From positions 34,173 through 98,172 of the forward strand of contig JAMPAL010000003.1 of assembly GCA_023667245.1 (NCBI GenBank): a DNA stretch of 64,000 nucleotides, written 5' to 3'. Shown here one piece after another: positions 5,062 through 44,005 of the stretch. Positions within the stretch are counted from its first letter, which is position 1; every line of letters begins with the position of its first letter. The notes below the pieces were generated by a model. That model worked only from the letters and a program-made list of their open reading frames with translations, searched no databases and had not been told where the DNA came from. Source of the DNA: Anaeroplasma bactoclasticum (GTDB taxonomy: Bacteria; Bacillota_I; Bacilli_A; ML615J-28; CAG-313). The position numbers and the translations under genes are program-made.

Positions 5062-5135
5062 TGGAGCAGGTGATGGGAATCGAACCCACGTAGTCAGCTT
5101 GGAAGGCTGAAGTTCTGCCGTTGAACTACACCTGC
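5062..5135 (-). tRNA. tRNA-Gly (anticodon UCC)
   Basis: Reverse complement GCAGGTGTAGTTCAACGGCAGAACTTCAGCCTTCCAAGCTGACTACGTGGGTTCGATTCCCATCACCTGCTCCA folds as a cloverleaf with anticodon loop CUUCCAA. CCA is encoded. Confidence 0.9.
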
Positions 5136-5141
5136 GTAAAA

Positions 5142-5218
5142 TGGTCGGGACTGCAGGATTCGAACCTGTGACCCTCTGGTCCCAAACCAGATGCTCTACC
5201 AAGCTGAGCTAAGTCCCG
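5142..5218 (-). tRNA. tRNA-Pro (anticodon UGG)
   Basis: Reverse complement CGGGACTTAGCTCAGCTTGGTAGAGCATCTGGTTTGGGACCAGAGGGTCACAGGTTCGAATCCTGCAGTCCCGACCA; anticodon loop UUUGGGA. Confidence 0.9.
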
Positions 5219-5264
5219 CAAGTATTAATATTATAACACTTTTCATAAATATTGTCAAGTAAAA

Positions 5265-5341
5265 TGGCGCGCCTGGCAGGATTCGAACCCACAACCCCTT
5301 GATCCGTAGTCAAGTATTCTATCCAATTGAACTACAGGCGC
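5265..5341 (-). tRNA. tRNA-Arg (anticodon ACG)
   Basis: Reverse complement GCGCCTGTAGTTCAATTGGATAGAATACTTGACTACGGATCAAGGGGTTGTGGGTTCGAATCCTGCCAGGCGCGCCA; anticodon loop CUACGGA. Confidence 0.9.
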
Positions 5342-5357
5342 ATATACAACTGATAAA

Positions 5358-5433
5358 TGGCGGTTCCAACGGGACTTGAACCCGCGATCTCCAGTGTGAC
5401 AGACTGGCATGTTAACCACTACACCATGGAACC
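5358..5433 (-). tRNA. tRNA-Asp (anticodon GUC)
   Basis: Reverse complement GGTTCCATGGTGTAGTGGTTAACATGCCAGTCTGTCACACTGGAGATCGCGGGTTCAAGTCCCGTTGGAACCGCCA; anticodon loop CUGUCAC. Confidence 0.9.
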
Positions 5434-5435
5434 AT

Positions 5436-5518
5436 TGGTGCGGGCGACAGGAATCGAACCTGCACTCGTGAGAACTAGATCCTAAGTCTAGCGCGTCTGC
5501 CAGTTCCGCCACGCCCGC
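5436..5518 (-). tRNA. tRNA-Leu (anticodon UAG), type II with a long variable arm
   Basis: Reverse complement GCGGGCGTGGCGGAACTGGCAGACGCGCTAGACTTAGGATCTAGTTCTCACGAGTGCAGGTTCGATTCCTGTCGCCCGCACCA; anticodon loop CUUAGGA. Confidence 0.85.
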
Positions 5519-10224: not shown

Positions 10225-13200
10225 TTATCTTGCAAATACACCATTGTTCCAAATTTTGCTAGCACTATATGTGCCATCCCATTGTTCCCAAGTGGTTGTA
10301 CCAGGAATAATGCTTGATAATGTAATGGTTCTTGTTTCACCACCCAATTCAACAGTAACTTCATACGATACTGTTGTTGTAATAGTAGGAGCATGAACAA
10401 CGCGACCAGTATTATCTACAATTTCAGGATTATTTGATTTCATTGTAATCTTCGCTGCACTATAATTCTTTTGAATTTCATATTGCAACTCAACCATTTC
10501 CATGAAATTATTCCAATAATCACCTGCAATTATTGTCTGTGGACAATTCTTACCTGTCCACGTATTGTGCATTTTTACTCTTGTTGGATCTAATTGATTA
10601 CGAATAAGGATATCTGCTACAAGTTGGGCAGTTCTTTGCCATGTATCATAAATATCACCTGATAAATTAGAACACATTTCAATACCAATGGAATTATTGT
10701 TACCACCACGAGAACCAATTGTTCTATAACTTGATGAATACCATAATGGTCCACCAATATAGTAATAACCATTTTCTACCTTCCAAGTTGGTCCAAGATG
10801 GCTTAAATCCTTTACAGAAGGTGCAGCACCATTTACTGTAGGTACTTCAATTTGTGTCGCTGTACCATTTAATGTTAAATAATATGCTGAACCATTTTGA
10901 ACAATACCAAATACAGGAGCTACATTCAATGTTGCAGCTACATTTGTTTTTGTCCAAGTAAATGTTGCAGTTGTACCATCACCTGCATGATATGCAATAT
11001 ATTTTTCTGGAACTACTCCATAAATTGCATCATTACCTACTGTATAGTGAATAGATGTTTCTCCACTTGACATACCTTGTGCAATGGATACTACTGTACC
11101 TGTAAGCGTTGCTGTATCATGAACAGTAACGAATTCAATTGTATCTACACTACGGCGTGACTTATGATTATTTGGGTTAGCTTCACTTGTCGCATAATAT
11201 GTTTCATCTACTTTAAATGCATCGAATAAATATTTGTTTACGCTACCATATGTTGAAACATATACTCTTTCTACACCATCATTATATAAAGATACATTAC
11301 CTGTTTCAACTACTGCAAAATTATTTTTAGCAAGTAATGCAACTAAACGATCAATTTCAGTATCTTCTAGATATGTCTTTACTGTGATACGAATAGAAAT
11401 ATTAATATTTGTATTTGCAACTGCAACCATTACATAGGCTTCTCCTTCTGTAAGCGCAGTAATTAATCCCGTTTCGGATACTGTTAAAATGTTTGTGTCA
11501 CTAGATGTGTATGTTAATGCTGCATTTTCCATTCCTTTACCAAATGCTTGAGCAACTATTTGAAGTGTTTCACCAGGTTGAATGGCACCACTATAGTTTC
11601 TATCAAAATCAACACTTATAGATTGAATTGGATAAATCGTAATCTCTTTTTGAGTTGAAATTTTTCTCAAATAATCATAAATGGTAACTGTAGCCTTACC
11701 CGCATTAATAGCTGTAATTAAACCAGTGCTAGATACAGTTAGAATGTCTGTATTACTAGACTCATAGAATAATTGTTTAAAATAAGCTTCACTAGGTTCT
11801 ACACTAGCTTCAATTTGGAATGTTTCTCCAGTTAATAATTCATCACAAATTGCATCTACTTTTATTCCTGTTACTGGATTTAATTGTTCCCATTTTGCAT
11901 ATAAGGTAACATTGCCTTTTAATGTGTCAAGGTTTGGATAATATGTATCATTTTCATCAAACCATCCCAAGAATTTATAACCTAAATAACCAGGTTGAAT
12001 TAAAGCATCACTATATCTTGCACTTACAGTCAATTGATTGCCTGCAGGTACTGCATCAAAGAAACATACTGTTCCTGGATCATCCGCTGTAATATCCTCA
12101 ATTGGTTTACTAAATGCTACCATTTGTCCTACTTTTAATTTTTGAGTAACTGGATTAATACTACCCCAATAATTATTATAGGAATTAGAAATTGTAATCA
12201 AATATTCCGCACCCTCTGGCCAAGAAGAAGCACCAGATGAAACTACTTTTACGATTTCATATAAACCAGTTTCTTCATTTTTACCAATATAAATACGATC
12301 AGAGAACGTTGCTGCAGGATCATAACTACTTGTACCAATAAAAATATCGGTTGTATATTTTCCACCCCAGAAAGTACCATTATTATAATTATAATTATTA
12401 ATGGTTAAACTTGGTGCATCTCCTCTATTTGCCATTAATAATTCTTCTGAATATCCTCCATTGAATACGTAGGTCACTTCGTAAATTTCACCTTCTAATT
12501 GTTTCCATGATGCAACAAGACTTAAATTTCCTCTTGATGTAACTGGGATTTCCGTAACATATTCATCGTTTAAGAGCCATCCTAAAAATTGATAATTTTC
12601 TTTTACCAAAGTAGGTAAAGTTATCGCTTTGTCCATCATATTGGTATAACCATTTACTAGGCTTCCTTTTACTGTACCTCCACCTAATTCATATGAAATG
12701 GTGTAAAACTCTAGTGGCTCAACAACCGCTACACCAGGTTTAGTAGATAAGGTTGTACCATATGTACTTAAGTGTTGGAAATAAGATGCATAAGGTGTTA
12801 AATCAGTAATGACATTACCTGCATTATCTTCATAATAGTTTTCACCAAATATAGCCAAGTGTGGATTAGTTGTAGCGGTATCACTTCCACGATATGTGCC
12901 AAAATAATGCGTTTCAGGTAAACCTAAAAATGAATTATTTTGAACAGTACAACTCCAAATGCTTGCATTTGCACCATTATTGCGCAAGTACATATAGTTA
13001 TAACAATGATCAAATGTATTATTTTCAATCACCCAATTGGTTTTATTCTCTTGATAAATATTACAAGCTATTGCACCATTGAATTTTTCAGCAGTAGTAT
13101 CTTTTGTACCTAGGTTTTTAAATACATTATTTTTAATGATTGCCTCAGTTTTTGTACCTGCTGCACCCGCAATGGCATAGAAGAAAATACCATTATAGCC

Positions 13201-16200
13201 GTTGCCAGATACTGTTTGTTCAAAAATATTATTGGTAAATGAGAATACACCGTAATTGTATCCACCTTCAAAACGAATCGCATCACGTCCAAAATCTTTA
13301 AATACATTGCCATCAAATGCTGCATTAATCGCACGATTTAACAAAATATTGGTTGCTTGAACATTTTCAAATAAATTATTTTTAAAACTAAAATTACTGG
13401 TCGTACCACCACTTGCCATTTTGAATTCAATGAATCCATCTGCAACGTATCTGTTCAATCCCCATACCGTTGTAGCATCTGCTGTGTCATACACTTTATT
13501 ATTCACAAATGTAAAGCCACTATATGCTTTATCTTGAGCATTCTTAATTGAACCACCTTCAGTAAAAGCAAGTCCATCAATAGTTAAATTTGTAGCTATA
13601 GCATCTACTTTAATAACACCTTTATAAATCGCTTCTTCTTTTCTCGTATCTTTATTTGGATTAACACCTGCATTTGGACCGACAATTGTCAAGTTAGCAA
13701 TTGAAATTGTTACATTTTCATTATACTCTCCTGCCAAAAGGATGATTTTATCTCCTTCCTTAGCATGAGCAAGTGCTTCTGCTAAAGTTGGATAAATCCA
13801 ATCTTCTGTACCATTTCCAACATATAAAGCATCTTCTCTATATCTAGCTACTAAAACAATATCCCCTTGTGTACCCGCTGGGATAGATTCAATTAATTCT
13901 CCATTGAAATACCAACCAAGGAAAATCATACCATCCATAGTAGGAATAGGAAGTGAGGCCAACCCTGTACTTGGATTATAACTTGTTGGAGCACCGTTTG
14001 GTAATGTTCCACCACCTAATACATATTCAATGGTATTGGTTTGTACTGGTTCTCCATATACAGGTACTTCAGCATCGCTTGTATAATAAGGTTCCCATAC
14101 ACTTACGCCACTAAAATGAGCAGCAGTTGGTGTCTTATCATAATAGTTATTTGAAGCATCGATATAATTTCCTGAATTTTTACCATTATCAGAAACAAAT
14201 TTTGTATTTAAACATCCGTAAATCTTATTATAATTGACATGAGCTACCAAGCTATTTTCATCTAATCCAGCAGCTTGAATTCTTGCAAGGATACCAGATT
14301 GCTTTGTTGTATTATAAAGTACATCAATTGTAACCTTATTTGTACCATTTACACTTGCATAAGTTGCAAAAGTAAAGCAGCCATTGTTATAGTTTGCATA
14401 AACTCCACTGTCTTCAAAAATGTTATTTTGTAAAGAATATGTTCCTTCTGCATAAGTTCCAAACCAAACAGGATATTGCTTAAAGTCAACAAACGTATTG
14501 CTTAAAATTTGAACATCACCCATGATATCAAACTTTAATTTTGTGTTAGCATTGAATTTTAAACCATCATTGTATTGACCACTACTACTTGTACCATGGA
14601 ATTCACAATTTTCAATGGTAATGCCATTTAATTGCGTAGCATACATGATCATCGCTCTACCGCTTCTTGCTTTCATCAACATATTAGCTATATACGTGTT
14701 AGAATAAACAACAGTATCTACATTTGGTATGAAATAAAGTGGTGCATTGGTACTACCATCAATAGTTGAATCCTCTACTAAAACATTGATAATTTTAAGA
14801 TTATCTACTGATGCATCTGGATTAGCCACAATTCTTGCACTTCCAGTAAGTTGTATACCATCCAATGTTACATCGTCTGCACAAACTACAATATCTCCTG
14901 TAAAAATAGTTTCTGCTGTTCTTGCTTGCTTAACTGGATTTACGCCACAATTTTCACCCCTAATGGTTACCGATTTCGTTACTTTTATGCCGCCAAATGT
15001 GCCTGCAACAATCACAATTGTATCTCCATCATTTGCAGCATCAAGAGCAGCTTCTATTGTTGCATAGGCATTCGCATCATTTGAATCAACAAGTAATTCT
15101 TTTGGTCCTTCACTACCTTGTTCTTTTTCCCATTTCGCAGTAAAAGTAAGATTGCCTGTCATCTCTTCGGTAATCGATTCTACTTTTACTTCACCTGCAT
15201 ACCAACCTAAGAATTTAAATCCTTCCTTTGTTGGTTGTGGAAGCAATAATTCCTGGCCTTCTGTATATTCTGTTGGCAGATTTTCACATACTCCACCATC
15301 TAAAATAAATTCAAGGTGAGATTTTATCACTATTTTTTCCCATTTCGCAGTAAGAGTAAGATCGCCTATCATCTCTTCGGTAATCGATTCTACTTTTACT
15401 TCACCTGCATACCAACCTAAGAATATATAGCCTTCTTTAGTTGGAGTTGGTAAAGTAAAGACTGTACCTTTTGTATATACTGTTGGTAGATTTTCACATA
15501 CTCCACCATCTAAATCATATGTAATAGTATATTCAATCGCTGACCATTTCGCAGTGAGAGTGAGATTACCTTTCGTATTTGAAGTAATCATCTCAATTTT
15601 TTCTTCACCCATATACCAACCTAAGAATGTGTAACCATTTTTTGTTGGTATAGGTAATTCAAGAGCTGTACCAGTTTCATATGTTGCAGGTAAGTTCTCA
15701 CATACTCCACCATCTAGTATATATTCAAGTGTATATGTATCTGCTTCATATTTTGCAGTAAGGGTAAGATTACCTTTCGTTTCTTCAGTAATAGATTCTA
15801 CCTTTTCTTCACCCATATACCAACCTATAAATGTATAACCTTCTTTAATAGGCACTGGTAATGCTAATTCCATACCTTCTGTATATTCAGTTGGTAAATC
15901 ATCACATACTCCACCATCTAGTATATATTCAATACTATATACTGACTTTACGACTTCTACATTTAACGTGTATTCACGATACTGATTTGCATCTAGTGGA
16001 TAAGTCACTCTCACTACAATTTGTGCTTCCCCTAATGCTTTTGCATATACATTTCCCTCAGCATCTACTGAAAGAATATTTTCATCAGAAGAAGTAAAAG
16101 TAACAATAGAGTCTGTACTATCTGATGCAAGTCGATATGTAACTACTGTTGTCTCTCCTACTGTTAACTTTTGTTTTACTGAAAAATCACCTTGTAGTGA

Positions 16201-16539
16201 CTTCGTAAACCGAACTGTAACTTTTGCTGTAATATAAGCTAAGGGTTGTTCTATCGCATAAACACGAATCGTAGTCTCCCCTTCACGAATGGCTTGAATC
16301 TCGCCATTTACAAAAGTTGCAACTGTTTCATCCTCACTTCTGAAACCAAGTTCAGTTTCATAAGGATTGTTACCCTTTGTAATTGTCGCTTGTACTTTTA
16401 TACTTGTGCCAGCTTCCAAAGTATACACTTTTTCATCCAATTCAATATGAATGACTTCAGCTGGATTACAAGAGGCAAAAACCAAAAGTAAACCAAAAAT
16501 AACAAAAATGAATGATAATTTTTTACCTAAATTTTTCAT
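10225..16539 (-). CDS. giant (2104 aa) cell-surface lipoprotein: Big_2 Ig-like domains + Listeria-Bacteroides repeats + right-handed beta-helix (pectate-lyase-like) region + C-terminal amidase_2 (N-acetylmuramoyl-L-alanine amidase/PGRP) domain
   Basis: Signal peptide with lipobox (LLVFASC). Four 72-aa List-Bact repeats (DGGVCENLP...GYTFLGWY...LTLTAKW). Many NNxF/NNK beta-helix (PbH1-like) repeats. Further List-Bact and Big_2 modules. A C-terminal block VTVHDTA...SIHYTVGNDAIYGVVPEKYIAYHAG...NSIGIEMCSN...HNTWTGKNCP matches amidase_2 zinc-ligand motifs (coords about 10570-11440). Confidence 0.8.
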   Translation of the reverse strand: MKNLGKKLSFIFVIFGLLLVFASCNPAEVIHIELDEKVYTLEAGTSIKVQATITKGNNPYETELGFRSEDETVATFVNGEIQAIREGETTIRVYAIEQPLAYITAKVTVRFTKSLQGDFSVKQKLTVGETTVVTYRLASDSTDSIVTFTSSDENILSVDAEGNVYAKALGEAQIVVRVTYPLDANQYREYTLNVEVVKSVYSIEYILDGGVCDDLPTEYTEGMELALPVPIKEGYTFIGWYMGEEKVESITEETKGNLTLTAKYEADTYTLEYILDGGVCENLPATYETGTALELPIPTKNGYTFLGWYMGEEKIEMITSNTKGNLTLTAKWSAIEYTITYDLDGGVCENLPTVYTKGTVFTLPTPTKEGYIFLGWYAGEVKVESITEEMIGDLTLTAKWEKIVIKSHLEFILDGGVCENLPTEYTEGQELLLPQPTKEGFKFLGWYAGEVKVESITEEMTGNLTFTAKWEKEQGSEGPKELLVDSNDANAYATIEAALDAANDGDTIVIVAGTFGGIKVTKSVTIRGENCGVNPVKQARTAETIFTGDIVVCADDVTLDGIQLTGSARIVANPDASVDNLKIINVLVEDSTIDGSTNAPLYFIPNVDTVVYSNTYIANMLMKARSGRAMIMYATQLNGITIENCEFHGTSSSGQYNDGLKFNANTKLKFDIMGDVQILSNTFVDFKQYPVWFGTYAEGTYSLQNNIFEDSGVYANYNNGCFTFATYASVNGTNKVTIDVLYNTTKQSGILARIQAAGLDENSLVAHVNYNKIYGCLNTKFVSDNGKNSGNYIDASNNYYDKTPTAAHFSGVSVWEPYYTSDAEVPVYGEPVQTNTIEYVLGGGTLPNGAPTSYNPSTGLASLPIPTMDGMIFLGWYFNGELIESIPAGTQGDIVLVARYREDALYVGNGTEDWIYPTLAEALAHAKEGDKIILLAGEYNENVTISIANLTIVGPNAGVNPNKDTRKEEAIYKGVIKVDAIATNLTIDGLAFTEGGSIKNAQDKAYSGFTFVNNKVYDTADATTVWGLNRYVADGFIEFKMASGGTTSNFSFKNNLFENVQATNILLNRAINAAFDGNVFKDFGRDAIRFEGGYNYGVFSFTNNIFEQTVSGNGYNGIFFYAIAGAAGTKTEAIIKNNVFKNLGTKDTTAEKFNGAIACNIYQENKTNWVIENNTFDHCYNYMYLRNNGANASIWSCTVQNNSFLGLPETHYFGTYRGSDTATTNPHLAIFGENYYEDNAGNVITDLTPYASYFQHLSTYGTTLSTKPGVAVVEPLEFYTISYELGGGTVKGSLVNGYTNMMDKAITLPTLVKENYQFLGWLLNDEYVTEIPVTSRGNLSLVASWKQLEGEIYEVTYVFNGGYSEELLMANRGDAPSLTINNYNYNNGTFWGGKYTTDIFIGTSSYDPAATFSDRIYIGKNEETGLYEIVKVVSSGASSWPEGAEYLITISNSYNNYWGSINPVTQKLKVGQMVAFSKPIEDITADDPGTVCFFDAVPAGNQLTVSARYSDALIQPGYLGYKFLGWFDENDTYYPNLDTLKGNVTLYAKWEQLNPVTGIKVDAICDELLTGETFQIEASVEPSEAYFKQLFYESSNTDILTVSSTGLITAINAGKATVTIYDYLRKISTQKEITIYPIQSISVDFDRNYSGAIQPGETLQIVAQAFGKGMENAALTYTSSDTNILTVSETGLITALTEGEAYVMVAVANTNINISIRITVKTYLEDTEIDRLVALLAKNNFAVVETGNVSLYNDGVERVYVSTYGSVNKYLFDAFKVDETYYATSEANPNNHKSRRSVDTIEFVTVHDTATLTGTVVSIAQGMSSGETSIHYTVGNDAIYGVVPEKYIAYHAGDGTTATFTWTKTNVAATLNVAPVFGIVQNGSAYYLTLNGTATQIEVPTVNGAAPSVKDLSHLGPTWKVENGYYYIGGPLWYSSSYRTIGSRGGNNNSIGIEMCSNLSGDIYDTWQRTAQLVADILIRNQLDPTRVKMHNTWTGKNCPQTIIAGDYWNNFMEMVELQYEIQKNYSAAKITMKSNNPEIVDNTGRVVHAPTITTTVSYEVTVELGGETRTITLSSIIPGTTTWEQWDGTYSASKIWNNGVFAR
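15121..15960. repeat. intragenic tandem DNA repeats (about 216 bp x4) encoding the List-Bact repeat modules of the giant lipoprotein
   Basis: Near-identical stretches, for example ttctttttcccatttcgcagtaa(a/g)agtaagat(t/c)gcct(g/a)tcatctcttcggtaatcgattctacttttacttcacctgcataccaacctaagaat, at 15121 and again at about 15337. Two more diverged copies follow. Confidence 0.8.
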
Positions 16540-16699
16540 CTTTTTTTCTTTCCTTTCTTTTTGATTGCTTTATTATTATAGCACTCTTTACGAAAGTTTG
16601 CAAGCGTTTACATATTTTTATTGTCATTATTATCCATTTCATATAAAAAAACTACTGATAAATATCAGTAGTTTTTTATTCAATACACGATAATGTAAA

Positions 16700-16933
16700 T
16701 TAGTCAATCCACCAAATTGGTTTGCCAAGAATGACACAAATTAGATCAACAATCCACAAAATAACGAACCCACCACAAAGTAATAATACTACAGCTAAAA
16801 TGATGCCAAGTACATTTCCAGCAGCAATGGATTTGAATAATCTTAATAGGTTACCATAAGCGCCCCATAAAATTACAAGTAGCAAACGTACTATCCAAGG
16901 AAGTCCTTCTAATGTTGAAACTACTTTTTTCAT
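16700..16933 (-). CDS. small two-TM membrane protein, hypothetical
   Basis: 77 aa with two hydrophobic helices and a terminal WWID. It sits immediately downstream of the PII-like pair on the same strand. Confidence 0.35.
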   Translation of the reverse strand: MKKVVSTLEGLPWIVRLLLVILWGAYGNLLRLFKSIAAGNVLGIILAVVLLLCGGFVILWIVDLICVILGKPIWWID

Positions 16934-17031
16934 TTTTATTTCCTCCTGTTTTATTATTTCACATTTGAGTATGACTCAAATGTGACGCAATTATCATTAT
17001 AACCAAAAAATTTTTTTTGTCAATCATAAGG

Positions 17032-17334
17032 CTAATTGCTAATACCAATAGCATCATCTACTGGAAGCGAAAAAGTAACCGTATGTGCTTGTGTACCTAC
17101 ACCATGTTTTCTAGATATCGATTGCATAATAGGCGCCTTTAATGCTTCATCTGTGATAATCATAATGATATCTTTTTCTGGTTGTATCGTAATTCCTAAA
17201 AAATGTTCACTATCTTTTTGTGCAGATCCTCTTGCATGAATGATGGTACCCCCTTTTGCTCCTGCATCTTTGGCTGTACGCATAACTTCGTCTGCACTAC
17301 CACTATTACAAATAGCAAGAATTAAATGACGCAT
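17032..17334 (-). CDS. PII-like (GlnB-fold) signal-transduction protein, copy 2
   Basis: 100 aa: MRHLILAICNSGSADEVMRTAKDAGAKGGTIIHARGSAQKD... resembles PII/DUF190-type proteins (beta-alpha-beta core and T-loop region). It starts 1 nt after the stop of the preceding PII-like gene. Confidence 0.55.
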   Translation of the reverse strand: MRHLILAICNSGSADEVMRTAKDAGAKGGTIIHARGSAQKDSEHFLGITIQPEKDIIMIITDEALKAPIMQSISRKHGVGTQAHTVTFSLPVDDAIGISN

Positions 17335-17335
17335 A

Positions 17336-17725
17336 CTACTGTTCCTCCTTTTGTTCGTTTGAAGTCGAGTGAGACATCGTCAGTTTGGTCTCACGCAAAA
17401 TTTCTTCTAAAACACTTTGCCCCGCAATACTATCTAATGGAATTGTACAAGCCACACCATGTCCTGGCTGATCTAGATGCATTTCTATGCGCAAGGCATC
17501 TAACATAAATGGCACAATATCCGTAGGAGCTACCGATAAGACCACTTCTTTTTCTATTTCACCAAAACCAATATATTCAAAAATTTCTTTTGGCGCCGTT
17601 CCTTTTCCATAAATAATTTGATGGTAATGACATCCTACTTCTTCTAATATTTTTACAACTTGATTACCAAGGCCACGGTCAACTATAATGACAAATAATC
17701 GCATACCAGTGATTTTTCTATTCAT
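17336..17725 (-). CDS. PII-like (GlnB-fold) signal-transduction protein, copy 1
   Basis: I chose the start at MNRKITGMRLFVIIVDRGLGNQVVKILEEVGCHY because a GGAGG lies 9 nt upstream; the longer ORF-track start has no RBS. It overlaps the DUF1538 gene stop by 8 nt. Confidence 0.55.
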   Translation of the reverse strand: MNRKITGMRLFVIIVDRGLGNQVVKILEEVGCHYHQIIYGKGTAPKEIFEYIGFGEIEKEVVLSVAPTDIVPFMLDALRIEMHLDQPGHGVACTIPLDSIAGQSVLEEILRETKLTMSHSTSNEQKEEQ

Positions 17726-19271
17726 TTGCCTTTTCCTCCATTTCTTCATAATCAATTGTAAATTCAATAATAGGTTCTAATTCAGCCATTACATAATGCG
17801 ATTTCATTCTAGTCTTCCACTTATACACTAAGCCTACAATTTGGATAACGACAAGCGGTGTCATCGCAACAAGAGCAACTACGCCAAATCCATTAGTCAA
17901 CATCTTTGTCTCAAAATGACTTGTTCCTTCATAAATAGCAAGGCAGGCACCACTTGCAAGTGGTAATAAAAAAGTCGCTGTAAGTGGTCCTGAAGCAACA
18001 CCACCTGAGTCAAAGGCAATTGCAGTGAAAATTTTAGGAACGAAAAACATTAACCCAATGGCAATCACATATCCAGGAATTAAAATATACCAAATACTAT
18101 AATCGAAAATAACCCTTGACATTGCAAGACCAACCGATATAGCAACGCCTGCTGCTAAACTATATAACATTGTTTTTTTGGAAATAGCACCACTTGTAAT
18201 TTCTTCTACTTGTTTATTTAACACATGAACGGCAGGTTCTGCCATCACAACAAAAAATCCCATAATCATACCGAGTGGTATCAATATGTATTTTAACTGC
18301 GTGGCACCTACTGTTTTACCCAATAAAGTTGCAACAGGCATAAATCCAATATGTGCGCCTGTTAGAAATATGACTAAACCAATATAAGTATAAAGTAAAC
18401 CGATAAATATTTTGATGATATTTTTCTTACTATCTTTAATTAAAATCATTTCAAAAACAACTACACAAGCAATAATGGGTAAGATGGCTAGAGCAATTTC
18501 CCCTATCATACTTACCAATTGATGGCCAAATCCTGTACTAAAATCATGAAATGTTTGATATGCTATAACATCTGATGTACTTACATTTGGATTTCTAAAA
18601 AATAATCCTAGTATCAAAACCATAAGTACTGGACCAACAGAACAAAAAGAAACAAGTCCAAATGAATCATCTTTCGAGGCATTATCACCACGAGCTCCTG
18701 CTACACCTAGTCCAAGTGCAAGTATGAAAGGAACTGTCATAGGACCTGTAGTCACACCACCAGAATCAAAGGCCACTGCAATAAATTCACTTGGTACAAA
18801 AATAGCAACTAAAAAAACGATCCCATACAATATGATAAGCAAAACATTCAATTGAATTTGTAATACTATACGCAATAGTGCTAAAGCAAGGAAAAGCCCT
18901 ACTCCAAGTGCTACACATAAAATCAAAACTAGTGGTGGAATTGTGCTTTTCATTTGATCTGCTAGTACCATCAAATCTGGTTCTGCAATAGTGATAATCA
19001 AACCAATCGCTGCAGTTACTCCGACCAAAAGAAGCAAATTCTTTTTTTTCGTGATATAACTGCCGACTTGCTCACCCATTTTCATCATCGAGGCATCGGC
19101 ACCAAGATTGAAAAAACTAAGCCCAAAAATCAACATAATAGCGCCTATGACAAAGGCAAAAATCGTCCATCCTGGAAGCTTAAAGCAAAAACATAAAATC
19201 AGTACAATCACCGTTATGGGCAAAACAGCCAACAAAGATTCTTTGATTTTTTCAAGCAATGCTTTTTTCAT
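17718..19271 (-). CDS. DUF1538-like polytopic membrane protein (internally duplicated; putative transporter partnered with PII-like proteins)
   Basis: 517 aa, about 14 TM helices, two homologous halves each carrying AIAFDSGGV(T/A)(T/S)GP(M/L)T. I recall DUF1538 genes characteristically sitting next to PII-like genes. Confidence 0.55.
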   Translation of the reverse strand: MKKALLEKIKESLLAVLPITVIVLILCFCFKLPGWTIFAFVIGAIMLIFGLSFFNLGADASMMKMGEQVGSYITKKKNLLLLVGVTAAIGLIITIAEPDLMVLADQMKSTIPPLVLILCVALGVGLFLALALLRIVLQIQLNVLLIILYGIVFLVAIFVPSEFIAVAFDSGGVTTGPMTVPFILALGLGVAGARGDNASKDDSFGLVSFCSVGPVLMVLILGLFFRNPNVSTSDVIAYQTFHDFSTGFGHQLVSMIGEIALAILPIIACVVVFEMILIKDSKKNIIKIFIGLLYTYIGLVIFLTGAHIGFMPVATLLGKTVGATQLKYILIPLGMIMGFFVVMAEPAVHVLNKQVEEITSGAISKKTMLYSLAAGVAISVGLAMSRVIFDYSIWYILIPGYVIAIGLMFFVPKIFTAIAFDSGGVASGPLTATFLLPLASGACLAIYEGTSHFETKMLTNGFGVVALVAMTPLVVIQIVGLVYKWKTRMKSHYVMAELEPIIEFTIDYEEMEEKANE

Positions 19272-19421
19272 CTCTCACCACCTCTTTCTTTCGATGATAT
19301 GAAAAAAAGGCATTACTGCCTCTTTATTTGACAGACTCCACCATTTTTTCATATTCAATTGATACGTTTCTCTCTATATTTTTACATATTAGGGAGTATA
19401 AATTTATTTTAACATTTTTTT

Positions 19422-20963
19422 TTATTTCTGTAAAGAAATTGATTCACTATTTTTTGTGTAGCTAACAAGTAACATATAATTCCCTTGTTCATAATACATT
19501 GCCGCAAGATATTGCCCATCTTCTAATGCACAAATTGTATATAAATCGCATGTATCATCATAAGTATACCCCGATTGGGTCAATACGGTTTTGACTTCTG
19601 TAGCAATGGAGAAAAAAGGAAAATCTGGTGCATCAATTTGTTTTGTACTCCATGCGGTACTTGATTTTGCATCTGTAAGAAATGCTTGATGCTCCTTCTC
19701 TTTCCCAAAGACAATTACATCAATTTGCTTTCTTGTGTAATTTTGTTCTTGGTGTATTACAGTATCTTCTTTCGTATTGCGATATACGGTATAATATGTA
19801 TCAGGCATATTGATTTCAGTCATAGATTCAATTTTTTCATAAGCCACTTTGTCATTTGCTTTTACACAAGTTGCAAGGCTCATCGTAGCATATCCCGCTA
19901 ACAACAAGCAAATTCCTATCATGACAATACCTGTAATGATATTCTTTTTTCTCTTCATTTTATACTTTTTATTCAAAATTATGCCAAAGATAATCGACAC
20001 AATCGGAAATAGCAATGCAATTCCATAGGTCAACCAATATAAAGTAAGCGTTGTATCCTTGGTAAATAATTCTATTATGGTGGAAACAATCGCTATCCCC
20101 ATAATAGCCAGTGCCATAAAAACCCATGATAATATATCCATACTTCTTGGTAGAGTGGCCTCATTTTTTTCTTTCTTTAATGCCATATAGTCTACATAAT
20201 TTTGACTATTTGGTTTCATTTTTTCTTTCACTTGTGAAAATGATCCATTTTGAAAATCATTTTTATCAATGACCATAATCGTTCGTTGGTCTTTCACACA
20301 AGAAGAAATCAAATATTTATTATTTTCTACAGAAAGTAAAAATTCATTATAATAAAAAGTAGTTTGTGTTGTTTCATCTGGTTTAGATACATCCATATGA
20401 TCTTGATAATAGGTATAAATCCTTGTTTGTCCCACAAATTCCTCTACCCAATTCGCCTTTAGTCTTTTGTACTGGCGTGCCTTTTGAATAAAGCGAAAAA
20501 TAAAAATCACCGAAACCAATAATGAGATGATACCCAGTACTTTTAGAGTGCCAAAGTAAAAAAACAATCCCCACACCACATAAATCAAACACGAAAATAG
20601 ATTAGCAATCACAAAATTGCGATAATCTCGTTTAAAAATTTCATCAAACACATTGGGTGTATAGGTGATTTGAGACTGAGCAAAAGGCGTTTCTTGTACA
20701 TTTTCTTCTTGTATATGATTGTCTTCCTCTATAATTTCTGTCGTTTGATGCACATATGTTTTTCGATCGATACGAAAACTAAATGTATCCATAGGAACAT
20801 CAAATACCTGTGCAAGAGCCAATTTTTTATCTAATGATGGCTCTAATTCATTGGATTCATACTTTGCTACATTTTCTACACTATCTTGAATCAAAGATGC
20901 TAGTTCTTCTATAGTCATCTGTTTTGATTCACGCAAAGTCTGAATATTACTACCTATATTCAT
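19422..20963 (-). CDS. membrane-anchored XRE-family helix-turn-helix transcriptional regulator
   Basis: The N-terminal 60 aa (IQTLRESKQMTIEELASLIQDSVENVAKYESNELEPSLDKKLALAQVFDVPMDTF) form an XRE/Cro-type HTH. Several TM helices follow (about aa 120-175 and 280-365), with extracytoplasmic domains between them. Confidence 0.6.
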   Translation of the reverse strand: MNIGSNIQTLRESKQMTIEELASLIQDSVENVAKYESNELEPSLDKKLALAQVFDVPMDTFSFRIDRKTYVHQTTEIIEEDNHIQEENVQETPFAQSQITYTPNVFDEIFKRDYRNFVIANLFSCLIYVVWGLFFYFGTLKVLGIISLLVSVIFIFRFIQKARQYKRLKANWVEEFVGQTRIYTYYQDHMDVSKPDETTQTTFYYNEFLLSVENNKYLISSCVKDQRTIMVIDKNDFQNGSFSQVKEKMKPNSQNYVDYMALKKEKNEATLPRSMDILSWVFMALAIMGIAIVSTIIELFTKDTTLTLYWLTYGIALLFPIVSIIFGIILNKKYKMKRKKNIITGIVMIGICLLLAGYATMSLATCVKANDKVAYEKIESMTEINMPDTYYTVYRNTKEDTVIHQEQNYTRKQIDVIVFGKEKEHQAFLTDAKSSTAWSTKQIDAPDFPFFSIATEVKTVLTQSGYTYDDTCDLYTICALEDGQYLAAMYYEQGNYMLLVSYTKNSESISLQK

Positions 20964-21072: not shown

Positions 21073-23226
21073 TTACTCCTCCTTTTGTTTCAAACTTGTG
21101 TACATTGCATTGACCAAAATACCTGTATCATGATCATTATAGTCTTGCGTTAAATCCCAACACATTAGACCTCCTAGACCATGAGCTTTTACATAGTTAC
21201 ACTTAGCCTCAATGCTTCTTTCATTATCATAAGAATAAAACATACCTGCCCGAATAATATAAGCTGCTTCTGCTTGCTCATCATACTGTTCTACATAGGT
21301 AGAATCATTCAAAATTAATTCTTTCAATTTTGCAAAAGAAAGCGCATTTGTCCCCATTGATGTCGAAAGAGAGGCTGATAAATTTTGATTAACAACACTC
21401 GCAAAGGTTCCCCTTCTAGCATAAAAGGCAGCACCGGGGATGATTTTATCCACATCTACTCTCGTTTTCATAAACTCTACTGCGCTACTCATACTAGATG
21501 AAGCGTTTACACGATATAATGCTGAATCATGATAGGCTGTATTGCCCATTGCATAGTCATAAGTCATTACATTGAAAATATCCACATATTGATTGAGTGT
21601 TCTAAAGTCAAAAAAAGTATCACTTGTTGTAACTGCTATACTTAAAATCAAGTCTTTCCGATAAGCATTCATTGCTTGTTTTAATTCTTCACAAAATAAA
21701 TTCAAGTTTTGTCTATCTTCTTTATTTGAACCGATTCCTGCTACGCTACTCGTTGGATATTCCCAGTCAATATCAATGCCATCAAATTGATACTGCTTGA
21801 GTGTATTCATAATGGATTGAACCAGTTTGCTTCTTCCTTCCTTGGTCAGCATTGCTTCACTAAAGCCACCTGCTCCCCATCCTCCAATAGCAATACCAAC
21901 TCGAACGCCTTGTTGACGATAAGATAAAACCTGTCGAACAGCAGTAAGATTAGGTAATACAAGTTCACCATTTTGGATGCTTGCAAATGAAAAATTGATA
22001 TAATCTAATTGTTCAATTGAAGTACTTGGTAAGCGGAAGGCTCCGTTATAGTCATACAAATATCCACTGACGATACTCCCCTTGTTTAGGGGCTTTAATT
22101 CTATTTTAGGTACAATTGTATGAAATTTCAATTCAAAAATTTGTGTATCCTTTAATACTTGCACAGTTATGTCAACCTCACAATCTACAATTTGCCTTGT
22201 CACCAAGCCATTAGCAGAAATTACATCTTCATTGGATGATTGCCAAACCAATGTTGCCAGCGAATCTTCTATGTGTTCTAAGAAAACCAAATCACTTGAA
22301 GTGACTTCTGGAACTAAATCCATTAGATACCTTTCTAATGTATTTTGGTTCATATCCCATCCAGCGGTAAAAACCATATTATAGTGAATGGGGGTAGTAA
22401 AATCAAATAATTCTCCTAAATAATACCATCCAACAAAAGTGTATCCTTCTTTTGTAGGTGATTGAGGTTCTTCTAAGATTGTACCATAAGCCACCTGAAA
22501 ACCATCTATTGTATCTTCTGTATGCGTAATCCATTCTACTCCAAACATTTTCAATTCCCAAACTGCTGTTAAAGTCATATCTGTTTCTACTACACTATCG
22601 AAATCATAGCGTTCACCATCTTTTTCCCAATACAAAAAAGTATATCCCGGATTCAAAAGGGCATTGGGTTGATAGACTTTATTTCCTTTTTCAACAATCT
22701 GATTCCTAACCACTTTGTCACACATTGTATCAAACTGAATTAAATAACTAGTCTGTTCCCATTCCGCAATCAGTTTCATATCTTGTTGTACTTCCAAGAC
22801 TGAATCTACAAATTCCCCTTTGTATTTCCAACCTAGAAATGCACATCTTTCTTTAGTTGGTGTGGGTAGAATAATCGTTTCATGTAAGGTAGCTTGAAGA
22901 ACAATATCTGCTTCACCATTTTGACTTTGTAAAGTAATGGTATATTGTTTTTCTTCAAATCGTGCAATTAAAGCAAAATTGGTTTGAACATCACGCTCAA
23001 AATCATACAATTCATCTTCTAGATACCAACCTAAGAAATGATATCCTTCTTTCACAGGATCAAGTGGTTTTTCCACTTTTCCTTGTTTTTTTACTTCTAC
23101 TTGATGTATGCATATATCATCTACAAAAAAATGTACCTCATATGTCTTACGACATCCTACTAAACACAATAAGCAAAATACAATCCCCCCCCATAATGCA
23201 AAACTTCTTTTTTTTGTCATTTTCAA
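21073..23226 (-). CDS. secreted lipoprotein with List-Bact repeats and a C-terminal glycoside hydrolase family 18 (chitinase-like) domain
   Basis: Lipobox LCLVGC. Four GYxFLGWY-type repeats. The GH18 catalytic motif FDGIDIDWEYP (DxxDxDxE) and GGWG blocks are present. Confidence 0.75.
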   Translation of the reverse strand: MKMTKKRSFALWGGIVFCLLCLVGCRKTYEVHFFVDDICIHQVEVKKQGKVEKPLDPVKEGYHFLGWYLEDELYDFERDVQTNFALIARFEEKQYTITLQSQNGEADIVLQATLHETIILPTPTKERCAFLGWKYKGEFVDSVLEVQQDMKLIAEWEQTSYLIQFDTMCDKVVRNQIVEKGNKVYQPNALLNPGYTFLYWEKDGERYDFDSVVETDMTLTAVWELKMFGVEWITHTEDTIDGFQVAYGTILEEPQSPTKEGYTFVGWYYLGELFDFTTPIHYNMVFTAGWDMNQNTLERYLMDLVPEVTSSDLVFLEHIEDSLATLVWQSSNEDVISANGLVTRQIVDCEVDITVQVLKDTQIFELKFHTIVPKIELKPLNKGSIVSGYLYDYNGAFRLPSTSIEQLDYINFSFASIQNGELVLPNLTAVRQVLSYRQQGVRVGIAIGGWGAGGFSEAMLTKEGRSKLVQSIMNTLKQYQFDGIDIDWEYPTSSVAGIGSNKEDRQNLNLFCEELKQAMNAYRKDLILSIAVTTSDTFFDFRTLNQYVDIFNVMTYDYAMGNTAYHDSALYRVNASSSMSSAVEFMKTRVDVDKIIPGAAFYARRGTFASVVNQNLSASLSTSMGTNALSFAKLKELILNDSTYVEQYDEQAEAAYIIRAGMFYSYDNERSIEAKCNYVKAHGLGGLMCWDLTQDYNDHDTGILVNAMYTSLKQKEE

Positions 23227-27682: not shown

Positions 27683-28510
27683 CTAGGAATTCTCTTGATA
27701 ATGTTTATTTTTTACATTTTTATCTTTGATTCTTTGGTATAAAAAATATATACCTTGAATGCTAAAAAATAAAATCGTCGCTGCAAGAATAATACCCAAT
27801 ACATAACAAGCCAAAAAAACATACCAATTGGTCTTTTCCCAAATTGTAGATAAGACAAGAACAGTACTTTTATAATAGGGACTAATAAAGAACATATTGA
27901 ATGTATCGGTTAGTTGATATTTGACTTTAAATTGCTCAAATACAATATCCATTGTGAGGGCTATAGCCGTAATCACCAAAAAGACAAGGGTACCAGGATA
28001 TACTTCTTTGTATTGTTTTCCAAAATGATATGCCCCTATTAAATAACAAGCTAAAACAACCATTGTACTATGCCAAATCAAAGATTGCATGGTAATGGTG
28101 ACTTCGGTACTCATCACTGTTTTTGGAAAAACCAAAACGGAAAAACCTCCTAAAAAACCATAAAAAGCAAGAAAGGAAAAAACAAACTTTCTTCCTTGAT
28201 GAGGAAGGAAGGGGGCTATCAAACAAAAGTAAAGTGGAGTAGAGCAAAATTGAAAAGGAAAAATGGACCATTTATACCCGTCTCTTTTTTCAAATACATG
28301 AAAAAACAATTGTTTATACAATTCTAAGCAAAAAAAGAAAATCCCAAAAGCAAATACAACCTTTTTGATTGCATTTGTGGATGAATGCTTCCCCCATTTT
28401 AAAAATAGTATTGAAAAAATGATAGTCCATACACAAATCACTATATGTGCAATACCATATCCTTGATGAGTGGGATTGGGCCAAGAAAAAATATTTTCAA
28501 GCAGATTCAT
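27683..28510 (-). CDS. polytopic integral membrane protein (YwaF/TIGR02206-like, uncertain)
   Basis: About 275 aa and 7-8 TM helices; start taken at MNLLENIFSW. No catalytic motif identified. Confidence 0.4.
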   Translation of the reverse strand: MNLLENIFSWPNPTHQGYGIAHIVICVWTIIFSILFLKWGKHSSTNAIKKVVFAFGIFFFCLELYKQLFFHVFEKRDGYKWSIFPFQFCSTPLYFCLIAPFLPHQGRKFVFSFLAFYGFLGGFSVLVFPKTVMSTEVTITMQSLIWHSTMVVLACYLIGAYHFGKQYKEVYPGTLVFLVITAIALTMDIVFEQFKVKYQLTDTFNMFFISPYYKSTVLVLSTIWEKTNWYVFLACYVLGIILAATILFFSIQGIYFLYQRIKDKNVKNKHYQENS

Positions 28511-28640
28511 ATGACACCTTCTTCCTAACAATCACTAATGATGCTATATCATACCATAAACTCACCAATTTCGTCAATCATTTCATACCCCATAAAAAAG
28601 AAAATCGCCTGTTAATCAACAGGTTCATTTCTTTTGTTCA

Positions 28641-29009
28641 TTATCTTGGATAATTGGTGTTGTTTGGCTCATTCACGTGTACTTCACTACATGTATAATT
28701 TGGAATAAATTCATTTTCAGTTACATGATGATGAACGATTTCGGTATGATAGTTATGTACATATGGTTGTTTAGTTACATGATATTGATTGATAACTTGT
28801 TTAGAGCAGGTTACAATGGGTGGGCAGCATTTGTATGTAGTAGGACATTGTTGTTGACATCCGCAATCTGGCATACCTTGATTGATATTGCCACAATTAC
28901 AAGTTTGGTTATCAGGATTCATCATAGGTTCTTGTTGTTGTTCAGGTTGGTTGTTGAAGTTCATACCAGGGAAATTATTATTTTGAAAAGGATTGTAAAA
29001 TCTTGGCAC
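28641..29009 (-). CDS. CotD-like inner spore coat protein (Cys/His/Gln-rich)
   Basis: I trimmed the start to the GTG preceded by AAGGAGGTG. The Cys-rich core (CNCG...CGCQQQC...YKCCPPIVTC) and the His-rich repeats VINQYHVTKQPYVHNYHTEIVHHHV resemble Bacillus CotD. Confidence 0.45.
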   Translation of the reverse strand: MPRFYNPFQNNNFPGMNFNNQPEQQQEPMMNPDNQTCNCGNINQGMPDCGCQQQCPTTYKCCPPIVTCSKQVINQYHVTKQPYVHNYHTEIVHHHVTENEFIPNYTCSEVHVNEPNNTNYPR

Positions 29010-29131
29010 GAGAATCACCTCCTTCGTTGTTAGTATATTACTTTTTTTTGAAATTGCTTGTGCAATTGCCATTTTTTTTGTTTTTTTGACAAAGCAATGC
29101 GGTATAATAAGGGAGAAAGAGAGGATATCCT

Positions 29132-29719
29132 ATGTACTTAACACCCGTTGTCATTGAACAAACTATAAAAGGAGAAAGAAGTTTTGATATATATTCTAGA
29201 CTCCTAAAAGATAGAATTATTTTGATATTTGGAGAAATTAATGATGCCATCAGTGCAAGTGTCATTGCACAATTGCTATTTTTATCAAGCATTGATAAAG
29301 AAAAAGAAATTTATATCTATATCAACTCCCCTGGTGGATCGGTTTCATCTGGATTAGCGATTTATGATACAATGCACTATATCCCCAACCCTTGTGTGAC
29401 TATTGGTATGGGTATTTGCGCAAGCATGGGGGCTTTTTTATTAGCTAGTGGTGAAGCCAAAAAAAGATATGCCCTAAAGCATACCAAAATAATGATTCAT
29501 CAACCATTGGGAGGTGCACAAGGCCAGGCATCCGATGTTATGATTGTTGCTGAAGAAATTATTAAAACTAAGCATCTTTTAAATACACTTTTGAGTAAGC
29601 ATACGGGTCAATCTTTAGAAACCATTGAAAAGGATTCTGATCGTGATCACTATATGACTTCAGATGAAGCAAAAGCTTATGGACTCATCGACGAAGTGCT
29701 TGAAAAAAATAATTTTTAA
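29132..29719 (+). CDS. clpP: ATP-dependent Clp protease proteolytic subunit
   Basis: 195 aa: [42 protein letters not shown], the catalytic [25 protein letters not shown] and DRDHYM, which supply the Ser-His-Asp triad. Confidence 0.9.
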
Positions 29720-29726
29720 TTTAATT

Positions 29727-30578
29727 TTAGATGATTTTTTCTATCCATTGTGGTAAACAAGTGATACTGATTTCTTGTTGCAAAATAGGATGAACAAAAC
29801 GAATGTGCATACTGTGCAAGTGTAAAATACCATCACTTGCCTTTTTGCCGTACAATTCATCTCCTATAATGCTGTGCCCTAAATGAGCGAAATGGAGTCT
29901 CAATTGATGTGTTTTACCTGTATGTAATGTGGCTTTTACAATGGAGGTCGATTCTTTGATTTGAAGGACTTCATATGTGGTCTTACTATTTACAAATGTT
30001 GTAGTGACTCTTCTTTTGATGATACTAGTAGGATCTTTTTCAATGCCAACTTCAATGATGCCTTTTTGTTGTTGACAGTGTCCTTCCACTTCTAAAATAT
30101 ACTCTTTAAGAAGAGCAATTTTTTTCATTTCTGCCATTATATATGGATTTTTAGCTAAAACAACTATACCAGAAGTTGCATAATCCAATCTACCTATAAA
30201 GTGAATATTGGATATGATTCCTTTTCTTTTATAATATGACATCACATAATTGGCCAAAGAATGTTGGTAGTGTAGCCTAGTTGGAATGGTTGCTAAATTA
30301 TTGGGTTTATTCAATATCAACAAATAACTATCTTCATATAAAATATCCAATGGACCTTTTATTCCTAGAATATGTTCACCTTGAAAAGACGCAGGAAAAA
30401 CAACCTCTAAGATATCACCATGATGCATGACATACCAATTTTCTACAATTTGATCATTAACTAGGAGTTGACCATTTCCTTGTTTAATTGCTTTTTGTGC
30501 ATTTTGAAAGATACCTTGTTTGGTTAAATAATCTTTAACTAGAATCTCGGATTCTTTGATGAAAAATCTTTTAATCAT
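29727..30578 (-). CDS. RluA-family 23S rRNA pseudouridine synthase (RluD/YlyB-like)
   Basis: 283 aa with an N-terminal S4-like domain and the catalytic block HRLDYATSGIVVLAKN. Confidence 0.85.
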   Translation of the reverse strand: MIKRFFIKESEILVKDYLTKQGIFQNAQKAIKQGNGQLLVNDQIVENWYVMHHGDILEVVFPASFQGEHILGIKGPLDILYEDSYLLILNKPNNLATIPTRLHYQHSLANYVMSYYKRKGIISNIHFIGRLDYATSGIVVLAKNPYIMAEMKKIALLKEYILEVEGHCQQQKGIIEVGIEKDPTSIIKRRVTTTFVNSKTTYEVLQIKESTSIVKATLHTGKTHQLRLHFAHLGHSIIGDELYGKKASDGILHLHSMHIRFVHPILQQEISITCLPQWIEKII

Positions 30579-43771: not shown

Positions 43772-43774
43772 TCA

Positions 43775-44005
43775 AAACATATGATATGGAAATAGTAATC
43801 TATTCTTATCTTGTAAAGTGAACAATGGAGAGTGGGAACATTGTTAAGAAAGATAGATGAATGGATCCATAGATGTAAAAAGAGGAAATGCTTTTTCGTT
43901 TTAACCGCGTTAAGGTTTCGAGAATATAAGTAATTGCACTTATATTGAATAAAGGTGGTACCACGATGCTTTCGTCCTTTTGAGGACAAAAGCATTTTTT
44001 TATTT
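43775..44005 (+). promoter_or_regulatory. T-box riboswitch leader of trpS (expected Trp specifier)
   Basis: T-box consensus AATAAAGGTGGTACCACG at 43948-43965, overlapping the terminator ATGCTTTCGTCC (43966-43977) / GGACAAAAGCAT (43984-43995) + TTTTTTT, immediately upstream of the trpS RBS AAAGGAG. Confidence 0.8.

Follow-up and report, generated by a model that had tools for sequence, protein, structure and literature searches.

A stretch of 64,000 nucleotides (nt) from Anaeroplasma bactoclasticum (GenBank assembly GCA_023667245.1, contig JAMPAL010000003.1, positions 34,173 to 98,172 of the forward strand; hereafter the window) encodes on its minus strand a fused double-DUF1538 membrane protein followed head to tail by two PII-like proteins, here termed PII-1 and PII-2. 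The GC content of the window, approximately 33%, is that of a low-GC gut organism of the Bacilli/Mollicutes type. The membrane protein is the product of a 517-residue open reading frame (ORF) at 17718..19271, PII-1 (129 residues) lies at 17336..17725 and PII-2 (100 residues) at 17032..17334, and 8-9 nt 5' of each start codon there is a ribosome-binding site of the GGAGG type. The end of the DUF1538 gene overlaps the start of PII-1 by 8 nt, the string ATGAATAG being common to both frames, which read ..GCA AAT GAA TAG and ATG AAT AGA, respectively. The stop codon of PII-1 ends at 17336 and the ATG of PII-2 begins at 17334, leaving a spacer of a single nucleotide. Both the overlap and the one-nucleotide spacing had been described in a preliminary interpretation made from the DNA alone (the sequence-only reading), and the ORF list together with the sequence confirms them. 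The start of PII-1 is placed at the ATG at 17725, rather than at the upstream TTG chosen by the ORF finder, because homologues begin at an equivalent MN(R/K)KI.GMRL.

The membrane protein matches Pfam PF07556 (DUF1538) with 438.7 bits against a cut-off of 22.6 (E=3.3e-132), in two stretches covering both halves of the chain, and the two halves align with each other at 30% identity (E=1e-22), so that the internally duplicated DUF1538-like protein recognised by the sequence-only reading is borne out by profile searches as a protein with two DUF1538 domains. Each half contains the motif AFDSGGV(T/A)(T/S)GP, as AFDSGGVTTGP in repeat 1 (residues 167-177; 18741..18773, minus strand) and as AFDSGGVASGP in repeat 2 (residues 419-429; 17985..18017, minus strand), and both copies are invariant across 35 homologues. 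Further invariant positions in the same set are E97-P98-D99, D202-S-F-G, E345-P346, N352, Q354, E356, R134 and R386. An AlphaFold2 (AF2) model is all-helical (predicted local distance difference test score, pLDDT, 83; predicted template modelling score 0.80), with helix 161-173 separated from helix 179-194 by a break at residues 174-178 in repeat 1 and an equivalent helix break at residues 422-428 in repeat 2, the two motifs falling at these breaks. The invariant acidic and polar residues E97-P98-D99, D169-S-G-G, E345-P346 and D421-S-G-G all lie at helix breaks of the model. Lysine and arginine in the loops, averaged over the 35 homologues, are high at the N-terminus and in loop 2-3 of repeat 1, and in loop 1-2, loop 3-4 and the C-terminal tail of repeat 2. 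The positively charged loops of the two halves are thus in opposite register, and from the positive-inside rule we infer a 14-helix transporter built as a 7+7 inverted repeat, its N- and C-terminus both cytoplasmic. Ion-coupled secondary transporters are usually built in this way. The C-terminal tail contains a conserved E-x-I-I-E-F. No solved structural relative of the DUF1538 protein was found. Its sole NCBIfam family matches are UmpA (152 bits) and UmpB (133.6 bits), far from the equivalog cut-offs of 490 and 500 bits (NF041627/NF041628), making it a distant homologue only.

Both small genes encode PII-like paralogues, as the sequence-only reading had supposed, the two being recognised by different routes. 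PII-2 reaches 26.7 bits against Pfam PF00543, marginally above the cut-off of 25, its family profile matches many solved P-II chains and aligns with solved PIIs end to end (best match NifI1, 9p1x_H, E=1.6e-5), and one homologue has been named 'putative nitrogen regulatory protein P-II' by JGI. A protein identical to PII-2 is on record from a metagenome-assembled genome of Anaeroplasma bactoclasticum. PII-1 has no Pfam match and no NCBIfam family. Its assignment to the PII-like proteins follows from three observations. Profile-profile alignment with hhalign joins the PII-1 and PII-2 families over approximately 100 columns (probability 97.6%, E=3e-12). The AF2 model (pLDDT 76.6) has a beta-alpha-beta-beta-alpha-beta core with an extra C-terminal helix, its elements being strand 8-16, helix 20-30, strand 34-39, a low-confidence loop at 40-58 corresponding to the T-loop, strand 59-67, helix 71-82 and strand 91-96. 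Finally, the top 50 Foldseek matches in the PDB are nearly all members of the PII family (E~1e-5, probability 1.00), including GlnK, the PII protein of M. tuberculosis, PotN (7o4x), SbtB and CPII, with two chains of the NIF3-related 2gx8 as exceptions. NifI1 is the best PDB sequence match of the PII-1 and PII-2 profiles alike.

The association of these genes extends far beyond the window. A scan of genomes gave 31 loci from Bacilli, Clostridia, Synergistaceae and Izemoplasmatales, and 80 further loci were fetched in a scan of metagenomes, around 75 of them with at least 750 nt downstream. A PII-1-type region and then a PII-2-type region lie directly 3' of the DUF1538 gene in all 30 usable genome loci, the 31st stopping at a contig edge, and PII genes likewise follow the DUF1538 gene in every metagenome locus with at least 750 nt of downstream sequence. 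Over both scans, the trio is kept in all of the approximately 105 related loci with enough downstream DNA; eight further loci (plasmid/chromid and other), as well as L039, show the same linkage to PII genes. Because every usable related locus shows this gene order again, the arrangement is not a product of chance, and the co-conservation on which the sequence-only reading had made its proposal depend is present. Junctions within the trio mostly measure -11 to +34 nt, lengths that depend on start codons chosen heuristically in the related loci. The trio is found in unrelated neighbourhoods, namely in a gut Clostridia genome and in replicons of Peptoclostridium, Paraclostridium and Vescimonas, where RefSeq names the partner of the DUF1538 protein 'P-II family nitrogen regulator'; the adjacency of DUF1538 and PII is therefore already visible in RefSeq annotation. 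Clustering of all flanking ORFs returned no other co-conserved gene, only local synteny (PheT, EF-P, GH18, ABC ATPase), and no nif genes occur in any neighbourhood examined. Conservation is limited to the transporter and its PII domains.

The two PII-like proteins are frequently joined. A single ORF of approximately 220-260 residues encodes both PII-1 and PII-2 in most metagenome loci and in 8 of the 31 loci from genomes. An exhaustive search with the PII-1 family profile recovered 2267 cluster representatives (E<=1e-3), the best 150 of which comprise 122 PII-1::PII-2 proteins, 24 single PII-1 proteins and 4 PII-1::PII-2::PII-2 proteins, the order of the domains never varying. The triple fusions (P0123, P0124, P0127 and P0160; 325-357 residues) carry PII-1, PII-2 and PII-2 in that order, and P0124 (L039:5001-6074) lies directly 3' of a fused DUF1538 gene. 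It is itself followed by genes for a 522-residue MgtE_N and CBS protein and for a DUF1003 protein. The DUF1538 units, too, are found both fused, as in the window protein, and as split genes: the split alphaproteobacterial pairs of Methylocystis and Chelativorans are followed by a single PII that is closer to PII-2 than to PII-1. Two longer DUF1538 proteins, P0237 (679 residues) and P0238 (692 residues), were considered as DUF1538::PII fusions and rejected, their additional length consisting of verbatim internal duplications of approximately 170 residues of the transporter, most likely assembly artefacts rather than real architectures.

By standard gene-fusion logic, proteins encoded as one chain in relatives act in one complex, and hetero-oligomerisation of PII-1 with PII-2 is accordingly regarded as likely. 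The idea of a heteromeric regulator built from two paralogues, already raised in the sequence-only reading, gains support from the 1-2 and 1-2-2 fusions; a three-domain chain has the appearance that would be expected of a single-chain PII pseudo-trimer. A precedent is the NifI1/NifI2 system, a 2:1 PII heterotrimer that inhibits methanogen nitrogenase and is the only documented heteromeric PII (PDB 9p1x, bioRxiv 10.1101/2025.09.09.675011). As in the window, two distinct PII paralogues are encoded side by side, and the 1-2-2 triple fusions mirror a 1:2 heterotrimer. The systems differ, however, in that the window module has no nif genes nearby and would have a membrane transporter as its target, and in that NifI keeps the canonical ADP/ATP/2-oxoglutarate residues (bioRxiv 10.1101/2025.09.09.675011) while the PIIs of the window do not.

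The only characterised DUF1538 system is UmpAB of Halomonas zhaodongensis, in which two DUF1538 proteins form a heterodimer. It is reported to make E. coli KNabc tolerant again of Na+/Li+ and of alkaline pH and, in vesicles, to carry out pH-dependent Na+(Li+,K+)/H+ antiport (PMC5484666). UmpAB and the window protein share the family PF07556 and the principle of two homologous seven-helix DUF1538 units working together, though these are separate proteins in UmpAB and one 517-residue chain in the window, and no PII partners are mentioned for UmpAB (PMC5484666). The sequence-only reading had treated the substrate as unknown, a view that stands in so far as the window protein scores far below the UmpA and UmpB cut-offs and is overtaken in so far as a DUF1538 pair has been reported to be a Na+(Li+,K+)/H+ antiporter (PMC5484666). 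By analogy, the window transporter may tentatively be taken for an exchanger of monovalent cations (Na+/K+/Li+) against protons, an assignment somewhat short of an even chance. The PII pair could instead gate a DUF1538 transporter of a different substrate, such as bicarbonate or another anion, ammonium, a divalent cation or a small metabolite, and signal the metabolic state that goes with it, in the manner of SbtB towards SbtA. The low UmpA and UmpB scores are compatible with this, as are the presence of SbtB and CPII among the fold matches of PII-1 and the MgtE_N/CBS protein encoded 3' of the DUF1538 and triple-PII genes in L039, and no solved structure or fold relative fixes the mechanism. 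On the other hand, the one experimental datum for DUF1538 proteins is alkali cation/H+ antiport (PMC5484666), the invariant membrane-embedded Asp and Glu residues favour cations, and the neighbourhoods contain no recurring metabolic partner; in addition, DUF1538 stands beside cation transporters among predictor genes of pH adaptation in one machine-learning study, a weak piece of evidence. A non-alkali substrate is consequently considered rather unlikely, without being negligible, and the monovalent cation/proton exchanger is kept as the provisional assignment.

What the PII pair might sense was approached by comparing pocket residues in alignments to the canonical PIIs 3lf0 and 9p1x_H. The canonical B-loop GDGK, which includes K90, is replaced by GHGV in PII-1 and by QAHT in PII-2, the basic residue thus being lost from both. 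In PII-2 the position of R38 falls in an alignment gap and the chain stops before the R101/R103 region, a comparison that covers PII-2, the C-terminal residues of PII-1 being outside the alignment; PII-2 keeps only Q39, K40 and a K58-equivalent (E-K). The set of residues by which GlnB and GlnK bind ATP, ADP and 2-oxoglutarate (R38, GDGK, R101/R103) was not recovered, and judging from these alignments the classical pocket is not preserved in PII-1 and PII-2. The sequence-only reading had listed ATP/ADP, 2-oxoglutarate, cyclic AMP (cAMP) and cyclic di-AMP (c-di-AMP) as possible ligands, a list that cannot be assumed for two proteins in which the canonical ATP/2-oxoglutarate residues are not kept. 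Because these residues are lost, the ligand is not readable by homology, and to name an adenine nucleotide or a cyclic (di)nucleotide would be no more than guesswork.

The T-loops read GTAPKEIFEYIGFGEIEK in PII-1 and GSAQKDSEHFLGITIQPEK in PII-2. Canonical PII proteins carry in this loop the modification signature Y-[KR]-G-[AS]-[AE]-Y, and this signature (Tyr51/Ser49) is absent from both proteins. T-loop-equivalent segments are nonetheless among the best conserved parts of both families. In the PII-1 family the best-kept segments are GxGTAxSE..LGL.E.EK and PGxGIAFT, and in the PII-2 family GGT(V/I)IHARG...PEK and FSLPV. This pattern of residue conservation suggests a pocket that is different but retained, together with a conserved T-loop surface. 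It also bears on the notion that the PIIs are constitutive structural subunits, needed for folding, stability or assembly and sensing no ligand, a role with which the loss of canonical nucleotide-binding residues and the strict stoichiometric coupling and fusion would agree. Against such a role, UmpAB is active alone in E. coli, and the glycine-rich motifs at ligand-cleft positions (GxGTA, PGxG, GGT..HARG) are kept, which suggests a retained binding pocket; we consider it very improbable. Since UmpAB functions in E. coli without any PII (PMC5484666), the PIIs are better understood as regulators than as essential subunits.

The interpretation favoured here is that the trio would constitute a self-contained, translationally coupled three-gene module. 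Its first gene would encode a 14-helix secondary transporter, the single-chain equivalent of the UmpA/UmpB heterodimer, while PII-1 and PII-2 would assemble into a mixed PII oligomer, probably a unit of the heterotrimer type. With its conserved T-loops, this oligomer would bind the transporter from the cytoplasmic side and, once docked, would switch transport on or off according to the small molecule bound. By analogy with known PII-gated transporters, physical docking and gating appear fairly probable, slightly less so than hetero-oligomerisation itself, and the reading as a whole, a hetero-oligomeric PII switch gating a DUF1538 cation/proton transporter, is one towards which we lean with modest confidence. 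The relationship might also run the other way, with the membrane protein chiefly capturing the PIIs at the membrane, as a sensor or anchor, while their output would be exerted on soluble targets, as with AmtB-bound GlnK. PII proteins typically have several targets (PMC10710835), and the altered canonical ligand residues suggest a non-standard signalling role. Such an arrangement is nevertheless improbable given that the module has no other co-conserved gene, that the tight 1:1 operon and the invariant transporter-like motifs argue for a working transporter, and that the homologue UmpAB transports ions.

Several points weigh against a PII-gated cation/proton transporter and temper its acceptance. 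UmpAB is active in E. coli without a PII (PMC5484666), indicating that PIIs are unneeded for basal activity there. The UmpAB activity itself is based on heterologous complementation by one laboratory, and the window protein is distant from UmpAB (152 and 134 bits as opposed to 490 and 500), to the extent that its substrate may differ. The PII-gated channels and transporters known so far are trimers (PMC10710835), whereas nothing here indicates a trimeric DUF1538 protein, and a 1:1 fusion alone does not give a closed trimer. No DUF1538::PII fusion is present among the matches listed. Finally, going by the missing canonical residues, ligand sensing may be unlike that of known PIIs.

AmtB-GlnK and SbtA-SbtB are the established examples of PII-gated transporters (PMC10710835), and the DUF1538 module resembles them in placing a PII-family gene in a conserved operon with a transporter gene and in the T-loop-bearing PII fold, GlnK and SbtB being among the top fold matches of PII-1. 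It departs from them in four respects: the transporter belongs to another family, one without a solved fold relative; it is internally duplicated and not known to trimerise; two PII paralogues or a tandem fusion take the place of one homotrimer; and the canonical ATP/2-oxoglutarate residues are lacking. Bacillota also have PotN and PstA/DarA, small PII-like proteins with links to transport or ion homeostasis; they offer a further parallel, though there is no sequence-level membership and the partner genes are others. A link between DUF1538 and PII was not found in the searchable literature (subscription literature lying outside the search), a literature search on PII-like proteins with antiporters or transporters returned nothing on the pair, and the pair is not listed in a 2023 review of transporter regulation (PMC10710835). 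On our best reading, what is new is DUF1538 as a PII-regulated transporter family, together with a PII that is heteromeric or in tandem and has a non-canonical pocket, as a variation on the AmtB-GlnK/SbtA-SbtB theme.

The genes around the trio appear not to belong to it. A gene for a small membrane protein of 77 residues (16700..16933, minus strand), with two transmembrane helices, had been put forward in the sequence-only reading as a possible member of the module; this is rejected, its homologues being confined to five close relatives (L001-L005) and the gene having a promoter of its own. This sigma-70-type promoter, TTGACA-16-TATAAT, lies between PII-2 and the 77-residue gene (16996..17023, minus strand) and matches the consensus hexamers at 12 of 12 positions. 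Between the promoter and the ribosome-binding site of the small gene is a perfect 12-bp inverted repeat (16959-16985, minus strand; CACATTTGAGTC-ATA-CTCAAATGTG region), which could be an operator or a leader hairpin, and the fold of the whole spacer between PII-2 and the 77-residue gene has z=-3.4. No terminator was found in this spacer, the first one downstream of the PII genes being an intrinsic terminator 3' of the small gene (16646..16677, minus strand; 14-bp stem and U-run, -16.5 kcal/mol, z=-4.8). The 77-residue protein has a sub-threshold similarity to SemiSWEET/MtN3 (20.8 bits, cut-off 23.7).

Upstream of the transporter gene, folding of the 150-nt spacer identifies a hairpin with a U-run (19297..19354, minus strand), which is kept only in the near-identical loci L001 and L002, an analogous hairpin occurring in L003 and L004, and which is probably the terminator of the gene preceding it. 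A riboswitch or leader RNA upstream of the operon was considered and rejected, as Rfam returned nothing beyond noise at E<=10 and the hairpin is limited to near-identical loci. The preceding gene (19422-20963, minus strand) encodes a 513-residue protein with an N-terminal XRE-type helix-turn-helix (HTH) and a multi-helix membrane region. Its candidacy as a regulator of the module was likewise dismissed, such a gene being upstream in only 13 of 101 loci and kept only in the Anaeroplasma-like group L001-L009; small HTH genes are also situated 5' of the module in Vescimonas and Paraclostridium. The module is flanked further out by a 2104-residue protein with many 'GYTFLGWY'-type repeats of approximately 70 residues (10225-16539, minus strand) and by a 717-residue protein (21073-23226, minus strand), the near-identical L001 homologue of which has GH18 chitinase-like and Listeria-Bacteroides repeat domains. 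The L001 contig (JAMPDF010000006.1), which shares 97% protein-level identity with the window, has been deposited as a 'Prevotella sp.' metagenome-assembled genome and is probably mis-binned, because the other close relatives are Bacilli/Mollicutes.

Elsewhere in the window, a T-box leader is present at 43772-43982 on the plus strand (101 bits, gathering score 93) and five tRNA genes are clustered at 5065-5518 on the minus strand. GC skew, uniformly negative over the rest of the window, is positive (+0.06) in a single 2-kb bin at 28001-30000, pointing to a gene block on the opposite strand.

PII proteins belong to the most widely distributed signal integrators, yet their established transporter targets are few: AmtB/Amt1, the Nrt and Urt ABC importers, and SbtA. 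To these would be added a large PII family (>2,000 clusters at 50% identity) obligatorily tied to DUF1538 transporters, in which each transporter is accompanied by one, two or three PII domains and the canonical ATP/2-oxoglutarate site is lost. No description of this family was found in the searchable literature. A more specific form of the proposal, speculative and on present analysis unlikely, is that an asymmetric heterotrimer of one PII-1 and two PII-2 subunits docks on a single pseudo-symmetric DUF1538 transporter and has a non-canonical pocket, possibly for a second messenger such as c-di-AMP controlling K+/Na+/H+ homeostasis in Bacillota; if true, this would set two precedents, a heteromeric PII acting on a membrane transporter and a PII-transporter pair that departs from the trimer-on-trimer rule. 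Working out the module would provide a regulator, and probably a physiological role, for a transporter family without a solved structure, could test whether PII regulation needs trimeric targets, and might uncover a new PII ligand. Being common among Clostridia and Bacilli of the human gut, the family is experimentally accessible.

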